Source of the DNA: Escherichia phage p000v
Direction: 5' to 3' (one strand)
Sequence record: NC_055781.1
DNA length: 64,000 nt
The notes beneath the pieces were generated by a model. It did no database searches. It was not told the origin of the DNA and saw only the letters and a program-made list of their open reading frames with translations. Below, one piece after another: positions 43,141 through 50,415 of this stretch (within the stretch, counting starts at the first letter, position 1; each line of letters starts with the position of its first letter). Position numbers and translations under genes: made by a program.

Positions 43141-44450
43141 CATTTGATGATTTGACTGAAGGCCAGAAAAACGCCTTCAACGTTGTTATGAAAGCTATTA
43201 AAGAAAAGAAACATCACGTAACTATTAATGGGCCTGCTGGTACAGGTAAAACAACCCTTACTAGATTCATCGTTGAAGCCCTTATTTCTTCTGGAGAATC
43301 AGGTATTATTTTAGCAGCCCCTACACATGCTGCTAAAAAGGTTCTAAGCAAACTTGCAGGTCAAGAAGCATCGACTATTCATAGCATTCTTAAAATCAAC
43401 CCAACTACATACGAAGAAAACGTATTGTTTGAACAGAAAAAGGTTCCCGACTTAGCCTTGTGTCGTGTACTGTTATTTGATGAAGCATCAATGTGCGACC
43501 GTTCTCTGTTTAAAATAATGTTAGCTAGTATCCCTAAATGGTGTACAGTAATTGGAATCGGCGACAGATGCCAGATTCGTCCAGTGGACCCCGGCGAATC
43601 AACTGCGTATCTAAGTCCTTTCTTCACTCACAAAGACTTCGTGCAATGCAACCTTACAGAAGTTAAACGTAGCAATGCACCAATTATTGATGTTGCGACT
43701 GATATTCGTAATGGCAAATGGATTTACGATAAAGTAGTTGATGGACACGGTGTTCATGGATATACAGACCTTAAATCGTATATGATGAACTATTTTAATG
43801 TCGTTAAAACTCCTGAAGACCTTTTCGAAAATCGAATGATGGCATTCACAAATAAGTCGGTTGACAAGTTGAATTCAATTATTCGCCGAAAACTTCTTGA
43901 AACAGAAAAGCCATTTATTAAAGACGAAGTCATTGTTCTACAAGAGCCGTTTACCAAGACGTATAAGCTAGATGGCAAAAATATGACTGAAATGCTTTTC
44001 AATAACGGGCAATTCGTTCGTATTCGAGATGCCGTAGAAACGTCTACATTCGTTAAAGCACGCGGTGTTTCAGGCGAATATATGATACGATACTGGAATC
44101 TTACAGTAGAAACATATGGGGATGATGAAGAATACGTCCGCGAGGATATAAAGGTTATTTCTTCCGAAGAAGAGCTTTATAAATTCAATTTGTTTTTGGC
44201 TAAGACCGCAGAAACATACAAATTCTGGAATAAAGGTGGTAAAGCTCCATGGAGTGAATTCTGGGATGCTAAACGTATGTTCACTAAGGTGAAGGCACTA
44301 CCAGTATCAACCTTCCATAAGGCCCAGGGTATGTCTGTTGACACGGCCTTTGTTTATACACCGTGTATCCATTATGCTGATTCAGAATTAGCTAAACAGT
44401 TATTGTATGTCGGCACAACTCGTGGTCGTTTTGACGTCCATTTTATTTGA
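43137..44450 (+). CDS. dda: DNA helicase Dda (SF1B)
   Basis: MTFDDLTEGQKNAFN.VMKAIKEKKHHVTINGPAGTGKTT matches recalled T4 Dda. Confidence 0.95.
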   Translation: MTFDDLTEGQKNAFNVVMKAIKEKKHHVTINGPAGTGKTTLTRFIVEALISSGESGIILAAPTHAAKKVLSKLAGQEASTIHSILKINPTTYEENVLFEQKKVPDLALCRVLLFDEASMCDRSLFKIMLASIPKWCTVIGIGDRCQIRPVDPGESTAYLSPFFTHKDFVQCNLTEVKRSNAPIIDVATDIRNGKWIYDKVVDGHGVHGYTDLKSYMMNYFNVVKTPEDLFENRMMAFTNKSVDKLNSIIRRKLLETEKPFIKDEVIVLQEPFTKTYKLDGKNMTEMLFNNGQFVRIRDAVETSTFVKARGVSGEYMIRYWNLTVETYGDDEEYVREDIKVISSEEELYKFNLFLAKTAETYKFWNKGGKAPWSEFWDAKRMFTKVKALPVSTFHKAQGMSVDTAFVYTPCIHYADSELAKQLLYVGTTRGRFDVHFI

Positions 44451-44459
44451 GAGAAAATT

Positions 44460-45137
44460 ATGAGCACTGATGTTATTATAGATTTTGAAACATTCGGCAA
44501 TACGTCAAAAGCTGCTGTTATTGACCTTGCGGTTATTGCATATAATTCAGACCCTGAAGTTGTTGAAACATTTGAAGAACTTGTTCAACGAGGTAAGCGA
44601 ATTAAATTTAATTTAGCTTCTCAAAAAGGGAAGCGAGTTTTCGCTAAATCCACTATGAAATGGTGGAAAGAACAATCGGCTGAAGCACGTAAAAACCTGG
44701 CTCCGTCTGAAGACGATGTCACTACGCTTGAAGGCATTAAAATCTTTTTAGATTATTGTCGAGCTAATAAAGTTGACCAATGGAAATCACAGATGTGGTG
44801 CCGTGGTATGAGCTTTGACTTCCCGATCTTGGTCGATTTGATTCGTGACCTCTATCGTGATGAAGGTGTTCTTGAACCAGATATTGATACCGATAAATTA
44901 GAACCTGTTAAATTCTGGGCTCAACGCGATATTCGTACGGCAATCGAAGCTTACTCGTTGACACGAGGATTAAGTATGTGTCCATTACCGATGGGTACGC
45001 TAAAAGGATTCGTTGCCCATGATAGTATTCATGATTGTGCTAAAGATATTTTGATGTTAAAATATGCTCAGCGTTATGCGCTTGGCCTTGAAGATGTCCC
45101 TGAGAATCCTGACCCGTTAAGTGTAAAACAGCGATAA
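44460..45137 (+). CDS. dexA: exonuclease A (DexA)
   Basis: 225 aa; synteny downstream of dda. Confidence 0.8.
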   Translation: MSTDVIIDFETFGNTSKAAVIDLAVIAYNSDPEVVETFEELVQRGKRIKFNLASQKGKRVFAKSTMKWWKEQSAEARKNLAPSEDDVTTLEGIKIFLDYCRANKVDQWKSQMWCRGMSFDFPILVDLIRDLYRDEGVLEPDIDTDKLEPVKFWAQRDIRTAIEAYSLTRGLSMCPLPMGTLKGFVAHDSIHDCAKDILMLKYAQRYALGLEDVPENPDPLSVKQR

Positions 45138-45145
45138 AACCAGTT

Positions 45146-45190
45146 TACAACCAAGGATGGTTGGAGTATAATCTTTCTATCTTAACCAAA
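45146..45190 (+). repeat. repeated early-promoter cassette (copy 2 of the 3877-3925 element)
   Basis: TACAACCAAGGATGGTTGGAGTATAAT...CTATCTTAACC shared with 3877-3925. Confidence 0.6.
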
Positions 45191-45203
45191 CAGGAAAAAC
45201 ATT

Positions 45204-45698
45204 ATGAATATCAATACTATGGCTACTTACATCCTGAAAGACGAAAAACAAATCAACTGGTACGGTGCTTCAGTGCGAGCTTATGAAAAGTTTTGTGAAA
45301 TTTTAGGTGCCACTCAAGGTAATAGTTTCACTATTGTTAACTTCATCAAACAAGTTGAAGGCCCTTGGTTATTCTTAGAAATTAAAAATTCATATGGTAC
45401 AATTTCTACTACCGCCCTTCCAAGCACCGACTTTGAACTGTTGATTGAAGAAGCACCTGTTAAAGATGGTCTCCACTTTGATATGGATATCGCTTGTATG
45501 TACGGTACTCTGATTAAGCCTATTGAGCCTACTGATTTGTTGTGTAAATATGTTTCAATTCGACGCCCATTCGTTGGTCCAGTAAATGGATGGGTAACTG
45601 ACCAATGGATTGAAGACGGTGTTGAACTTCTGAACGTTGTTCATGCAGGTGATTTTAGTGTAGTTCCACGTAGTGCTGTGGTTAATATCCTTAATTAA
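45204..45698 (+). CDS. hypothetical protein, paralog family member 1
   Basis: C-terminal motif GWVTDQWIEDGVELLNVVHAGDFSVVP shared with next two genes. Confidence 0.55.
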   Translation: MNINTMATYILKDEKQINWYGASVRAYEKFCEILGATQGNSFTIVNFIKQVEGPWLFLEIKNSYGTISTTALPSTDFELLIEEAPVKDGLHFDMDIACMYGTLIKPIEPTDLLCKYVSIRRPFVGPVNGWVTDQWIEDGVELLNVVHAGDFSVVPRSAVVNILN

Positions 45699-45760
45699 TG
45701 TTGTACATCCAAGGATGGATGGAGTATAGCGAATTCAATTTAAACAAAGAGAGAGAAATT

Positions 45761-46216
45761 ATGATTACTATTGGTGAAATTAAGCGTGTATCGTCTGCAT
45801 CTCGTTCTAAAGCTGCAGGTCGTCTAGTTGAAGTTGTCGGACTTCGTACTAATGGTACTGGTCGTGTTAAAGAAGTTAAAGTTCGAATCATTCCTAGTTC
45901 TGGAAAAAGTGAAACTCAGTACGCTTACGTAAGTCCTAAATTCTTGGAAACTCATGTGAGCGCTCATTTTGCTTCTACTGAACCTAATGTACAGTTCAAA
46001 TGGGCCCTTTGCAAAGGCGTTGAATTCCAGACTGATAAAGAATTTGATTTCATCGACGAATATGGTTATCCAAGCAAAACTGATATCATGTGTGGCTTCA
46101 TTAGTGACCAATGGGTTGAAGATGGTGAAAAGTTATACAATATCGTATTCTTAGGTGACTTCCGAGTTGTTAAAGAATCTGAAATCACTCGCTATGTATC
46201 TCCTCGTAAAGCTTAA
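45761..46216 (+). CDS. hypothetical protein, paralog family member 2
   Basis: GFISDQWVEDGEKLYNIVFLGDFRVV; RBS AGAGAGAGA. Confidence 0.55.
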   Translation: MITIGEIKRVSSASRSKAAGRLVEVVGLRTNGTGRVKEVKVRIIPSSGKSETQYAYVSPKFLETHVSAHFASTEPNVQFKWALCKGVEFQTDKEFDFIDEYGYPSKTDIMCGFISDQWVEDGEKLYNIVFLGDFRVVKESEITRYVSPRKA

Positions 46217-46225
46217 GGAATTATT

Positions 46226-46645
46226 ATGAATATTGCAAATCTCTCTATTGGTGATTATGTACACGTATCAGATGCTTCTCGCTCTAAAGTTGCTGGGAAG
46301 TTGGTTGAAGTTCTTTATGTAAGTGATCCGGTTTTTGGACGTAACGAAGTTAAAGTTCGTGACGCCGATGGCAACATTGGTTACGTTAAAAGCCAATTCA
46401 TTGAACCAGAAGAAAAAGCGTTCAAATGGGGACTATGCAGATCAGTTTCTGTTGAAAAAGACCATGAATTCACTATTGCTGCGGCAACTGATGGGACACC
46501 GTGGAAAACTAAGCAAATCGCTGGATTTATTAGCGACCGTTGGGTAGAAGATGGTGTTAAGCTTTATAACATCGTTTTCGCTGGACAGTTCATGGTAGTT
46601 CCTGAATTCCAAATTAAAAAATATAGCCCAGCTGCTTTCGCATAA
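46226..46645 (+). CDS. hypothetical protein, paralog family member 3
   Basis: GFISDRWVEDGVKLYNIVFAGQFMVVP. Confidence 0.55.
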   Translation: MNIANLSIGDYVHVSDASRSKVAGKLVEVLYVSDPVFGRNEVKVRDADGNIGYVKSQFIEPEEKAFKWGLCRSVSVEKDHEFTIAAATDGTPWKTKQIAGFISDRWVEDGVKLYNIVFAGQFMVVPEFQIKKYSPAAFA

Positions 46646-46704
46646 AGTTGTTTACTTCTCCTCTGGTTTTGATATTATAACCATATCAACCAGAGGAGAA
46701 TAAT

Positions 46705-47229
46705 ATGTTAGTTTACCGCGTAGAACGTAGTTTTTGTACTCAACGTGAATCATTACCAGGAGTTGCTATCGAAGACGGTAAAGCCGTCAGAATTTGGGAA
46801 ACCTCCTGGAATAAAGAACCTCGTTCGCCATACGGTTGGTCGGGCACCGACAACTCTGAAGAAACATGGGAGTTCCTTGATAAGCATGGAATACTCTCAG
46901 GTAACTTCTACCATCACGGCGACAACTATAATGTACCTAATCGTCCTACAGTAAATGAAGACAAACTCCTTGAACAAAATATCTTAAGATACTATAGAAT
47001 TGAGCACACATTTGAATTGAACGAAGATTGGGCTCAAGGGTTCTATTTTGGATTTGAAAGCGTTGACGCGGTTTATGCATGGTTTGATGACCAGGTGGAT
47101 GTTGAACTCTTGAAAGCTAAAGGATACTACATCGCGGTCTATGAAGCACCTGATTTCATCCTCGGAAGTTGTCAATTAATGTTTAGACGTTCATTGGCAG
47201 AACAAGTTGATTTTATTTTGCTAAAATGA
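46705..47229 (+). CDS. hypothetical protein
   Basis: ORF track 174 aa; RBS GAGGAGAA. Confidence 0.5.
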   Translation: MLVYRVERSFCTQRESLPGVAIEDGKAVRIWETSWNKEPRSPYGWSGTDNSEETWEFLDKHGILSGNFYHHGDNYNVPNRPTVNEDKLLEQNILRYYRIEHTFELNEDWAQGFYFGFESVDAVYAWFDDQVDVELLKAKGYYIAVYEAPDFILGSCQLMFRRSLAEQVDFILLK

Positions 47230-47286
47230 TGTACAACAACTATGGTCTATGATACTATAGACCTATCAAAACAAGAGGAGAATATT

Positions 47287-47514
47287 ATGAAACGACAAAT
47301 CATTAAAAACGTAACTACTGATTCAAACATCGATGAGTTTGAAGATGTTCTGTTTAATCCTGATTTAGTTGTTGTACAGAAAAACTGGACCGGATTTTTA
47401 TGCTACACCGAAGTGGTTTACGTTTACGAAAAACTCGGTGATGAAATGCCTATCTACGGTATCTTCCGTGAAATCACTGAAAACGGTACAACTTATTGGA
47501 AGGAAACTTACTAA
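47287..47514 (+). CDS. hypothetical protein
   Basis: ATG with RBS AAGAGGAG. Confidence 0.45.
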
Positions 47515-47924
47515 TGGCTAATAAATTCCGCGTTAACTCATGGTACCAATTTAAAGATAAACGTGCCCAAGAAGAGTTTATTAAAGACCATACTGATAAC
47601 GGGATTTATGCACGACGTCTTGGCATGGAACCATTTAAAGTATTAGATGTTGACCATCTTGGTCGTCCTACTAAAATTGTGACATCTACTGGCATGGTTG
47701 GATACGCGACAGGTGGTGATATCCTTGATGAAAACTTTATCTGGCTCTCCACGAATGAAGCAGAGTTCTTTGACGAAGTTGGAAATCCATATCAAGCGTC
47801 TGAAGAGCAAGACTCTGGAGAACTTGATGAATTGTCTGAATTTCCGGTGATGACGATTACTATCAAAAATAACGACCAGGCATGGTCTTTGTATCAAATG
47901 TTGAAAGCACATTTTAAGGAATAA
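47514..47924 (+). CDS. hypothetical protein
   Basis: TAATG overlap. Confidence 0.5.
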
Positions 47925-47926
47925 TA

Positions 47927-48106
47927 ATGCCGTTATACGACTATAAATGCCAATCTGAAGATTGTGGTCATGAATATGAAAAAATTAAAAGGATTTCTGA
48001 ACGAGAAAACGATGTTTGCCCTGAATGTCATCGTCTGTCTACTCGTCGGGTTTCTGCTCCTAAACATGTGAACGGTGGTTTTTACGACTTACTTAAAAAG
48101 GGTTAA
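47927..48106 (+). CDS. small zinc-ribbon protein (CxxC...CPxC)
   Basis: MPLYDYKCQSEDCGHEY...CPECHR; 59 aa, below ORF-track cutoff. Confidence 0.45.
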   Translation: MPLYDYKCQSEDCGHEYEKIKRISERENDVCPECHRLSTRRVSAPKHVNGGFYDLLKKG

Positions 48107-48108
48107 TT

Positions 48109-48531
48109 ATGGCTTTTAAAGGTTTTGAAGTTGGTAAGAAATATCGTATTATCAAAGGTCAAGAAGATAATTTCTTGAGAATTCTTAATACGACTGGTAA
48201 ACGTCTTAACACTACTCTGCATACAGTTTTATTATCAAGAGATTTTATTGTAGAAGAGATGATTGGCTACGGTGTTTCAATGATTGCCGCTGAAACCGAT
48301 GGACCTGGACGTACAATCATTAGTATGCAAGGTGATATTCTAATTTACGGTGCAGAATTTAAATTCTTTGAAGAAGTTCAGGAACCAGATACAGCTGTCG
48401 ATTTCAAAAAAGGCTCTATAGAATTTGTTGATGGTTCGGTGATCGTATCAGGCGATGTGGTCATTACAGTTAAAAGTGAACAAGGGCGTTTGGCTGCAAT
48501 TGATGCACTTCAGAAAATTAAATTTAAATAA
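48109..48531 (+). CDS. hypothetical protein
   Basis: ORF track 140 aa. Confidence 0.5.
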   Translation: MAFKGFEVGKKYRIIKGQEDNFLRILNTTGKRLNTTLHTVLLSRDFIVEEMIGYGVSMIAAETDGPGRTIISMQGDILIYGAEFKFFEEVQEPDTAVDFKKGSIEFVDGSVIVSGDVVITVKSEQGRLAAIDALQKIKFK

Positions 48532-48548
48532 GGGCTTCGGCCCTTTTT
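48531..48548 (+). terminator. hairpin AGGGC-UUCG-GCCCU + U5
   Basis: 5 bp stem, UUCG loop, TTTTT. Confidence 0.55.
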
Positions 48549-48594
48549 GCTTTAGATTTCGGATGATAGAATACCTTCATAACGAGGAGACAAC

Positions 48595-50415
48595 ATGATT
48601 AAAAATGAAATTAAGGTATTGTCGGATGTAGAACATATTAAGAAACGTAGTGGCATGTATATTGGTTCTTCTGCTAAAGAAGCCCACGAGCGTTTTTTGT
48701 TTGGTAAATATCAACAAGTTGAATATGTTCCTGGTCTGGTTAAATTAATCGATGAGATTATTGACAACTCGGTTGATGAAGCTATTCGTACATCATTTAA
48801 GTTTGCAAATAAAATTGATGTGCAAATTAAAAATAATCAAGTTTCGGTGGAAGATAACGGACGTGGTATTCCTCAAGGTTTAGTTACCGACCAAACAGGT
48901 GAACAAATTCCTGGGCCTGTAGCAGCCTGGACTATTCCAAAGGCCGGTGGTAACTTTGGTGATGACTCTGAACGTAAGACTGGTGGTATGAACGGCGTCG
49001 GGAGTAGTTTAACTAATATCTTCTCTACGTTGTTTACAGGCATCACGTCAGATGGCGAAAATGAAATCACTGTTAACTGTTCAAACGGAATGGAAAACAA
49101 ATCATGGTCTTCTAAGAAATCTAAAGGTAAAGGCACTAAAGTAATCTTCACTCCTGATTTCACTTCATTTGAAGAGCATAATTTATCTCAAATTTATTTA
49201 GATATTACTTTAGACCGACTTCAAACATTGGCAGTCGTTTATCCTGATATCAAGTTCACATTTAATGGTAAAAAGGTCGATGGTAATTTTAAACGATTTG
49301 CTAAACAATTTGGTGAAGATAACATCATTCAAGAAAATGATAAAGTCTCTATAGCATTCACAACATCACCAGATGGCTTCCGTCATTTAACTTATGTGAA
49401 TAACATCCATACTAAAAATGGTGGACATCATGTTGAATGTGTAATGGACGATATCTGCGAACATCTTTTGCCGGGTATTAAAAAGAAATATAAGGGTATT
49501 GAAGTCACTAAAGCTCGTGTTAAAGAATGTCTCACAATGTTGATGTTTATTAGAGACATGAGCAACATGCGTTTTGATTCTCAGACTAAAGAACGTTTAA
49601 CGTCAACGTACGGTGATATTCGTAATCATATCCAATTAGATGCTAAGAAAATTGCTCAGGCACTTCTTAAAAATGAAGCCTTGATTATGCCTATTGTTGA
49701 AGCAGCATTAGCTCGTAAATTGGCGGCAGAAAAGGCTGCAGAAACTAAAGCAGCTAAAAAGGCAACTAAAGCTAAGGTTCATAAGCATATTAAAGCTAAC
49801 CAATGTGGTAAAGATGCAGATACGACATTGTTTTTAACAGAAGGTGATTCGGCAATTGGATATCTCATTGATGTTCGTGACCGTGAACTACATGGTGGAT
49901 TCCCATTACGTGGTAAGGTGATGAATAGCTGGGGTATGTCATATGCTGATATGATGAAGAACAAAGAGCTCTTTGATATCTGTGCTATCACGGGTCTTAT
50001 TCTTGGTGAAAAAGCAGAGAATACGAACTATCGTAATATTGCAATTATGACCGATGCCGATCATGACGGCCTTGGAAGTATTTATCCTGCTTTGCTTGCT
50101 TTCTTTAGTAATTGGCCTGAATTGTTTGAACAAGGACGTATTCGCTTTGTTAAAACACCTGTAATTATTGCACAAATTGGCAAAACTCAAAAATGGTTTT
50201 ATACTGTAGCTGAGTATGAAGAAGTTAAAGATACACTGCCTAAGCATAGTATTCGATACATCAAGGGATTGGGCTCACTTCAGCGGGATGAATATAAAGA
50301 AATGATTCAAAACCCTGTGTACGACGTAGTTAAACTTCCTGAAAATTGGAAAGAACTATTTGAAATGCTCATGGGTAACGACCCTGAACTCCGTAAAGAT
50401 TGGATGCTAGGATAA
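48595..50415 (+). CDS. 39: topoisomerase II large subunit (GyrB-like ATPase plus TOPRIM), single uninterrupted ORF
   Basis: GHKL motifs IDEIIDNSVDEA and DNGRGIP; TOPRIM LFLTEGDSA and DADHDG; 606 aa. Confidence 0.92.
   Translation: MIKNEIKVLSDVEHIKKRSGMYIGSSAKEAHERFLFGKYQQVEYVPGLVKLIDEIIDNSVDEAIRTSFKFANKIDVQIKNNQVSVEDNGRGIPQGLVTDQTGEQIPGPVAAWTIPKAGGNFGDDSERKTGGMNGVGSSLTNIFSTLFTGITSDGENEITVNCSNGMENKSWSSKKSKGKGTKVIFTPDFTSFEEHNLSQIYLDITLDRLQTLAVVYPDIKFTFNGKKVDGNFKRFAKQFGEDNIIQENDKVSIAFTTSPDGFRHLTYVNNIHTKNGGHHVECVMDDICEHLLPGIKKKYKGIEVTKARVKECLTMLMFIRDMSNMRFDSQTKERLTSTYGDIRNHIQLDAKKIAQALLKNEALIMPIVEAALARKLAAEKAAETKAAKKATKAKVHKHIKANQCGKDADTTLFLTEGDSAIGYLIDVRDRELHGGFPLRGKVMNSWGMSYADMMKNKELFDICAITGLILGEKAENTNYRNIAIMTDADHDGLGSIYPALLAFFSNWPELFEQGRIRFVKTPVIIAQIGKTQKWFYTVAEYEEVKDTLPKHSIRYIKGLGSLQRDEYKEMIQNPVYDVVKLPENWKELFEMLMGNDPELRKDWMLG

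Follow-up and report, generated by a model that had tools for sequence, protein, structure and literature searches.

Three consecutive open reading frames in the window, that is, the whole 64,000-nt stretch of Escherichia phage p000v (NC_055781.1) analysed here, very probably correspond to motB.1, motB and a diverged extra copy of motB in a Mosigvirus of the RB69 type. ORF1 (45204-45698, 164 aa), ORF2 (45761-46216, 151 aa) and ORF3 (46226-46645, 139 aa) all lie on the plus strand, exactly where the preliminary description had placed them. Comparison of the three proteins suggested that the triplet arose by domain shuffling together with one whole-gene duplication. The motB.1-motB-motB' triplet is real but ordinary, and it has already been described. 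Patterson-West 2021 (PMC7827196) reported that groups of MotB homologs have a common C-terminal domain and different N-terminal domains, that one such group is T4 MotB.1, whose gene directly precedes motB, that one of the two genes may be a duplicate of the other, and that RB69 carries two motB genes and one motB.1. The paralogy was therefore known from prior accounts (PMC7827196, PMC12152347); the shared C-terminal domain of MotB and MotB.1, their different N-terminal partners and the extra RB69-type motB copy are already published. The present study adds the selection on the three genes, the distribution of the domain over 28 clusters, the tandem-barrel AF2 models and the frameshift in T4 motB.1. 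As a discovery, the triplet matters little, and three modest points remain useful.

A 2.9-kb region around the triplet exhibited 96-97% DNA identity to many Mosigvirus genomes, including mobillu, ATK47 and RB69, and the same genes are annotated in RB69 as motB.1, motB, RB69ORF010c ('similar to motB') and motB.2. Because of this identity and these annotations, the window is, as judged from its sequence, that of an RB69-like Mosigvirus, a T4-type phage. In RB69, the motB cluster is flanked by dda/dexA on one side and by cef/goF/39.2/gene 60+39 on the other. The gene order in the window was identical to that of RB69: dda, dexA, motB.1, motB, motB', motB.2, cef, goF, 39.2 and gene 39/60. This places the triplet, as expected for the MotB family, in the early dda/dexA-cef-goF part of a Tevenvirinae genome, and the motB genes occupied the same place between dexA and cef as in T4. 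The T4 order is dexA, motB.2, motB.1, motB and cef, with one motB copy against the two found here. In the Tequatrovirus RB68, the order is dexA, motB.2, motB.1, motB and motB'. Since RB68 has the same motB.1-motB-motB' order, the triplet is not specific to Mosigvirus, and only the position of motB.2 differs. The motB.2 gene (46705-47229; phrog_1106, and in relatives Pfam Phage_T4_Y00F) follows the motB genes in the window and in RB69, whereas T4 and RB68 have it between dexA and motB.1, a local rearrangement of gene order. The T4 genes dexA.1 and dexA.2 were absent between dda and dexA in the window.

Near the C-terminus of all three proteins, we found the common motif G-[FW]-[IV]-[ST]-D-[QR]-W-[VI]-E-D-G-x-x-L-[YL]-N-[IV]-V-x-x-G-[DQ]-F, in which the G, D, W, E-D-G, L, N, V, G, F and V-V columns were invariant in the three-ORF alignment. 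On the plus strand, the motif was encoded as GWVTDQWIEDGVELLNVVHAGDF in ORF1 (45588-45656, residues 129-151), GFISDQWVEDGEKLYNIVFLGDF in ORF2 (46094-46162, residues 112-134) and GFISDRWVEDGVKLYNIVFAGQF in ORF3 (46523-46591, residues 100-122). Its coding cores formed a three-copy direct DNA repeat, D1, at 45599-45621, 46105-46127 and 46534-46556. Pairwise BLASTP yielded E values of 3e-10 for ORF1 and ORF2, 8e-11 for ORF1 and ORF3, and 9e-33 for ORF2 and ORF3, and the similarity among the three ORFs is well beyond chance. Because the motif contains 14-16 different residues in 26 positions, with an entropy of 3.6-3.8 bits, it is not low-complexity sequence; these values and the BLASTP E values ruled out a low-complexity or chance origin. 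The motif had been described as 25 residues long. The motif itself was confirmed in all three ORFs, but the shared region proved to be the whole C-terminal domain of approximately 56-74 aa, beginning at a conserved L-C-x-x-V strand. The Pfam family PF17613 ('motB, modifier of transcription') gave 35.7 bits for ORF1, 133.3 bits for ORF2 and 81.4 bits for ORF3 against a gathering threshold of 25 bits for the whole-protein score. Together with the BLASTP results (3e-10 to 9e-33), these scores supported the proposed paralogy of the three genes, which is based on the C-terminal domain that they share.

We then considered how widely this domain occurs. A search of 1.84 billion cluster representatives with a profile built from the C-terminal domains of the three ORFs matched only 28 clusters, in which the domain was always C-terminal. 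The N-terminal parts in these clusters were either KOW-like (M-K-I-x-D-x-V-x-V-S...S-K-V-A-G) or consisted of one or two MotB.1-type domains. The results indicated that the PF17613 C-terminal-domain family is narrow and modular. The three proteins had also been said to have divergent N-terminal halves; this was true of ORF1, which has a different N-terminal domain, but not of ORF2 and ORF3, which share 44% identity over their full length. The origin proposed for the triplet, local duplication followed by N-terminal diversification, therefore had to be replaced. ORF2 and ORF3 are the products of a whole-gene duplication, and their KOW-like N-terminal domains are homologous; in ORF1 the same C-terminal domain is joined to an unrelated N-terminal domain, which is domain shuffling rather than divergence.

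ORF1 (motB.1) matched phrog_2333 with an E value of 3e-80 over residues 1-164. It consists of an N-terminal domain (residues 1-82), a low-confidence linker (approximately 83-115) and a MotB-type C-terminal domain (residues 109-164, 45528-45695, plus strand), which by alignment is a short form whose first hairpin lacks 14 residues. PF17613 was matched by residues 88-159 only (model positions 82-153), so ORF1 does not have the full two-domain architecture of MotB. Its features placed it in the MotB.1 subfamily (phrog_2333, 'Category 2' of Patterson-West 2021), which has the C-terminal signature PTDLLC...GWVTDQWIEDGVELLNVVHAG. Like T4 MotB.1 (P39415), it matched phrog_2333 over its full length and is encoded directly upstream of motB. 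The identity was 50% to motB.1 of phage AR1, 44% to T4 MotB.1 and 44-51% across Tequatrovirus MotB.1 proteins. Unlike the T4-type MotB.1 proteins of 143-145 aa, ORF1 carries an extra 20-residue linker insert with the DMDIACMYGTLIKP motif. In the low-confidence (low pLDDT) linker, residues 92-106 (45477-45521, plus strand) formed the short linear motif D-M-D-I-A-C-M-Y-G-T-L-I-K-P-I (DMDIACMYGTLIKPI). The pattern D-x-D-[IV]-A-[SC]-M-Y-G-T-L-[IV]-K-P recurred in the linkers or N-termini of seven other MotB.1-type proteins (P0030, P0035, P0049, P0171, P0174, P0178 and P0182), but the T4-type MotB.1 proteins of 143-145 aa lack it. MotB.1 was acidic throughout, with a pI of 4.65.

Kim 2025 reported that the MotB.1 N-terminal domain has an LSm-like fold, common to GoF and Frd.2 and marked by a bent antiparallel beta-sheet of five strands, and that burst size and latent period are normal in T4 delta-motB.1 (PMC12152347). 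As an in-window test of the LSm-like relationship, the MotB.1 alignment was compared by hhalign with the GoF-like ORF at 48109-48528, and the match was not significant (probability of 1.3%). A Foldseek search of BFVD with the ORF1 model returned MotB/MotB.1 members and weak KOW-like matches only, with no GoF and no Frd.2. The hhalign comparison of alignments A4 and A6 yielded an E value of 4e-32, but it was left unused, because five sequences (P0060, P0073, P0074, P0076 and P0098) were common to both and the N-terminal alignment was thus not independent evidence.

ORF2 (motB) matched PF17613 with an E value of 9e-39 over model positions 2-157 of 162, the full two-domain architecture, and phrog_1671 ('MotB-like transcriptional regulator', which contains both ORF2 and ORF3) with an E value of 2e-64. 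Its C-terminal domain was preceded by a basic KOW-like N-terminal domain with a pI of 10.7 and a net charge of +8, like that of T4 MotB. A longer ORF2 starting from the ATG at 45698, as used in the mobillu annotation, was considered and dropped in favour of 45761. The latter is the better start because it is equivalent to the start annotated for RB69 motB, because T4 and RB69 MotB align from the Met at 45761, and because a promoter-like repeat falls inside the extension; a purine-rich stretch also precedes 45761. The start originally given for ORF2 was thus retained.

The promoter-like repeat belongs to a pair. Upstream of motB.1, we found a candidate T4-type early (sigma-70-like) promoter on the plus strand at 45144-45172, TTTACA-17-TATAAT, which agreed with the consensus at 11 of 12 positions and was the best match within 44400-48700; it is a candidate by consensus alone. 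A second copy of the promoter core, 92% identical to 45146-45170, lay upstream of motB on the plus strand at 45704-45728 (direct repeat D3), and its -35 and -10 hexamers were weaker (TATAGC). Within the early-promoter-like site, the 25-nt direct repeat covers the spacer and the -10 region. At the corresponding position, T4 has GTTTAC...TATAAT.

ORF3, the second motB copy of the RB69ORF010c type, matched PF17613 with an E value of 9e-23 and phrog_1671 over positions 2-166, and it has the same two-domain architecture as ORF2. Its KOW-like N-terminal domain has shorter loops and no net positive charge (pI of 5.7, net charge of -1). ORF2 and ORF3 both matched the Pfam model nearly over its full length with the layout of T4 MotB (NP_049626), and they shared with it the N-terminal VS-x-x-SRSK-x-AG-x-LVEV and C-terminal FKW...DQWVEDGVKLYN signatures. 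The identity to T4 MotB was only approximately 40-45% (approximately 44% for ORF3, with ORF2 aligning similarly over its full length). In contrast to T4 MotB, ORF3 lacks the IIPxxGKSxxQ loop and approximately 20 linker residues, and its N-terminal domain is not basic. ORF3 differed from RB69ORF010c by one residue and was identical to the SHSML-52-1 gene. Genes of the ORF3 type with at least 80% identity were present in 206 phage records, including RB68, and none were found at 60-80%, so the type is a distinct, conserved paralog clade. Because of this occurrence, the arrangement is old and widespread.

To compare the selection acting on the three genes, we calculated dN/dS against RB68, RB69 and mobillu. 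The values were 0.34-0.37 for motB.1, 0.14-0.22 for motB and 0.03-0.14 for motB', with dS reaching 0.66 in the motB' comparisons. These results indicated that all three genes are maintained under purifying selection overall. They bear directly on the view that ORF3 is a decaying, functionless duplicate, ORF1 an accidental fusion and the triplet debris in a dispensable region. Such decay would fit the non-essential character of the region in T4, the reduced length and missing basic charge of ORF3 relative to MotB, and the frameshifts of motB.1 in the RB69 and T4 reference records. It is nevertheless highly improbable, given the dN/dS values of ORF3 and ORF1, the intact ORFs in hundreds of genomes, the confident AF2 model of ORF3 and the fact that three other T4 genomes lack the T4 frameshift; it is already largely refuted by selection and conservation. 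ORF3 was accordingly rejected as a pseudogene on its dN/dS and its conservation in 206 phage records. A second MotB copy that lost its basic charge and is yet strongly conserved is a natural test case for the division of labour between the two domains.

Hybrid single genes were also observed on metagenome contigs, with a MotB-type N-terminal half and a C-terminal half of the second-copy type (P0149, with P0147 and P0151 similar). They occupied the place of the two genes of the window (L009, 1373-1894; L010, 3001-3492; L011, 2199-2690; L012, 37-528); the contigs were independent, and P0149 was present on five of them. The hybrids suggest recombination between the tandem motB paralogs.

Next, the folds of the proteins were modelled with AF2. 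The ORF3 model had a pLDDT of 89 and a pTM of 0.79, and the ORF1 model had a pLDDT of 80 with low confidence in the linker. Both ORF3 domains and the ORF1 C-terminal domain were predicted as strand-strand-strand-strand-3(10) turn-strand; in the ORF1 C-terminal domain, the strands covered residues 116-119, 127-137, 140-147, 150-155 and 159-163. In the ORF3 model, the motif ran from the end of strand 2 through the DG turn, strand 3 and the AG turn to strand 4, which together make up the barrel core. The models suggested that ORF3 may form two tandem SH3/Tudor/KOW-like barrels. In the literature, HHpred assigned the MotB C-terminal domain to the OB fold (cold-shock DNA-binding domain-like), which is a five-stranded barrel with the OB strand order and typically a helix between strands 3 and 4; in the AF2 models, the domain appeared SH3/Tudor-like rather than OB-like. 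The modelled fold resembled the 53BP1 tandem Tudor, Spt5 KOW6-KOW7, NusG KOW and the KIN17 SH3-like tandem at only 10-20% sequence identity; the resemblance is one of fold and not of family membership. A search of PDB chains with the ORF2 sequence gave no meaningful match (best E value of 0.87).

The preliminary description had regarded such genes as candidates for host interaction or anti-defence, and the first of these agreed with the literature on T4 MotB. T4 MotB is an early protein whose binding to DNA, both unmodified and glucosyl-hmC, is tight and without sequence specificity; it co-purifies with H-NS/StpA, is toxic and increases the burst size two-fold (PMC6070864). It also alters the H-NS DNase I footprint, and its overexpression up-regulates H-NS-repressed host genes; the motB gene region is non-essential in T4 (PMC7827196). 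A narrower anti-defence role, in which the paralogs inhibit specific immune systems and an arms race drives the N-terminal variation, is quite unlikely. The early, accessory and variable region in which the genes lie, the recombination of the C-terminal domain with several N-terminal domains and the existence of hybrid genes would be compatible with it, and H-NS is regarded as a xenogeneic silencer, which would make MotB a counter-silencer in a broad sense (PMC7827196). However, selection on all three genes was purifying and not diversifying overall, our literature search found no link of motB or motB.1 to a defence system, and expression of the CRISPR locus was unchanged on MotB overexpression (PMC7827196).

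By analogy with T4 MotB, we infer that ORF2 performs the same task in this phage. The three ORFs, very probably early genes, lie in the non-essential dda-dexA-...-cef-goF-gene 39 early region and encode the same small all-beta C-terminal domain, joined to a KOW/SH3-like N-terminal barrel in ORF2 and ORF3 and to a domain described in the literature as LSm-like in ORF1. Shortly after infection, ORF2 would be expressed from an early promoter, and it would bind DNA tightly without sequence specificity. It would coat and compact the host DNA and shift the seating of H-NS/StpA on it, leading to derepression of H-NS-silenced genes and a modest rise in burst size. ORF3 would be a paralog that has been kept, with the two-barrel fold of ORF2 but with the N-terminal positive charge lost, and its preference for nucleic acids or partners is probably modified. 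Because its N-terminal domain lacks a basic character (net -1, where ORF2 has +8), DNA binding of the T4 type may not hold for ORF3. In MotB.1, the shared C-terminal domain would act as a common interaction or assembly module on a different, possibly RNA-directed, head.

One tentative and somewhat doubtful alternative is that the C-terminal domain serves assembly or oligomerisation instead of DNA binding, so that MotB, the second copy and MotB.1 co-assemble into mixed complexes and the N-terminal heads give specificity. On this view, DNA would be bound mainly by the basic KOW-like head, and the shared C-terminal barrel would mediate interactions. The C-terminal domains were acidic or near neutral (net -2 in ORF1 and -4 in ORF2, against +8 in the ORF2 N-terminal domain), and D, E and W are frequent in the conserved motif, which sits in the barrel core and two tight turns. 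The domain was always C-terminal, and in the 28 clusters its N-terminal partners were of two or more kinds. MotB also reportedly compacts DNA and forms multi-protein centres in the compacted DNA (Son et al., NAR, 2021), which would favour assembly. T4 MotB.1 runs partly as a dimer, whereas AlphaFold3 gave no confident T4 MotB.1 homomultimer, the construct being the truncated 119-aa form (PMC12152347); the C-terminal domain of T4 MotB is, moreover, mildly basic, with a pI of 8.6. It is rather unlikely that MotB with a basic, DNA-directed head, the second copy with a neutral one and MotB.1 with an LSm-like and possibly RNA-directed one co-assemble into a single nucleoid-remodelling complex. If they did, the second copy would be a neofunctionalised regulator of MotB-driven DNA compaction and not a redundant DNA binder, and the 119-aa T4 MotB.1 construct behind the published negative results would lack half of the module, should T4D carry the 143-aa gene.

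The length of MotB.1 in reference records was compared with that of ORF1. In the T4 reference NC_000866, motB.1 has an extra G in the DQWIEDG motif, with ATTGGAAG instead of ATTGAAG (L003, 2200-2340, minus strand; compare window 45588-45698). The insertion cuts MotB.1 to 119 aa, and the next frame encodes the missing EDGVELLNVVHAGEYSVVPRSAVVAILN; in ORF1, the C-terminal domain is complete. Alignment of four T4 records revealed that T4T, T4 GT7 and T4 'wild' lack the extra G and encode a 143-aa MotB.1. T4T annotates this 143-aa protein, which was also encoded on 256 contigs (P0011). When IMG/VR was scanned with exact patterns of the frameshift site in T4 motB.1, the version with the extra G and the version without it gave 0 matches each. 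In RB69 (L001, AY303349, 3304-3800), two 1-nt insertions break up motB.1 in comparison with the window and mobillu, both of which have the intact 164-aa ORF. The RB69 'motB.1' and the 29-aa 'RB69ORF012c' are thus two pieces of one gene, and the split accounts for the 'Category 3' peptide of Patterson-West 2021, which is the 29-aa ORF012c. In view of the intact 164-aa MotB.1 and the re-sequenced T4 genomes, the shorter forms, namely the RB69 'motB.1' plus 29-aa peptide and the 119-aa T4 MotB.1, are frameshift artefacts or variants of a longer protein. The frameshifts bear on the reading of the published MotB.1 experiments. Kim 2025 used a 13.8-kDa protein and NC_000866.4 sequences (PMC12152347), and the form tested may lack half of the shared C-terminal domain.

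Downstream of the triplet, a second local paralog pair was observed, consisting of goF (47496-47924) and the equivalent of RB69ORF005c (48109-48531), which matched phrog_622 with E values of 9e-39 and 2e-19, respectively. The RB69ORF005c equivalent also had a weak N-terminal match to the MotB.1 family phrog_2333 (E value of 0.002). A hairpin resembling a bidirectional terminator, AAGGGCTTCGGCCCTT with a T run after it, was found at 48530-48545, where this GoF-like ORF is separated from the topoisomerase gene.
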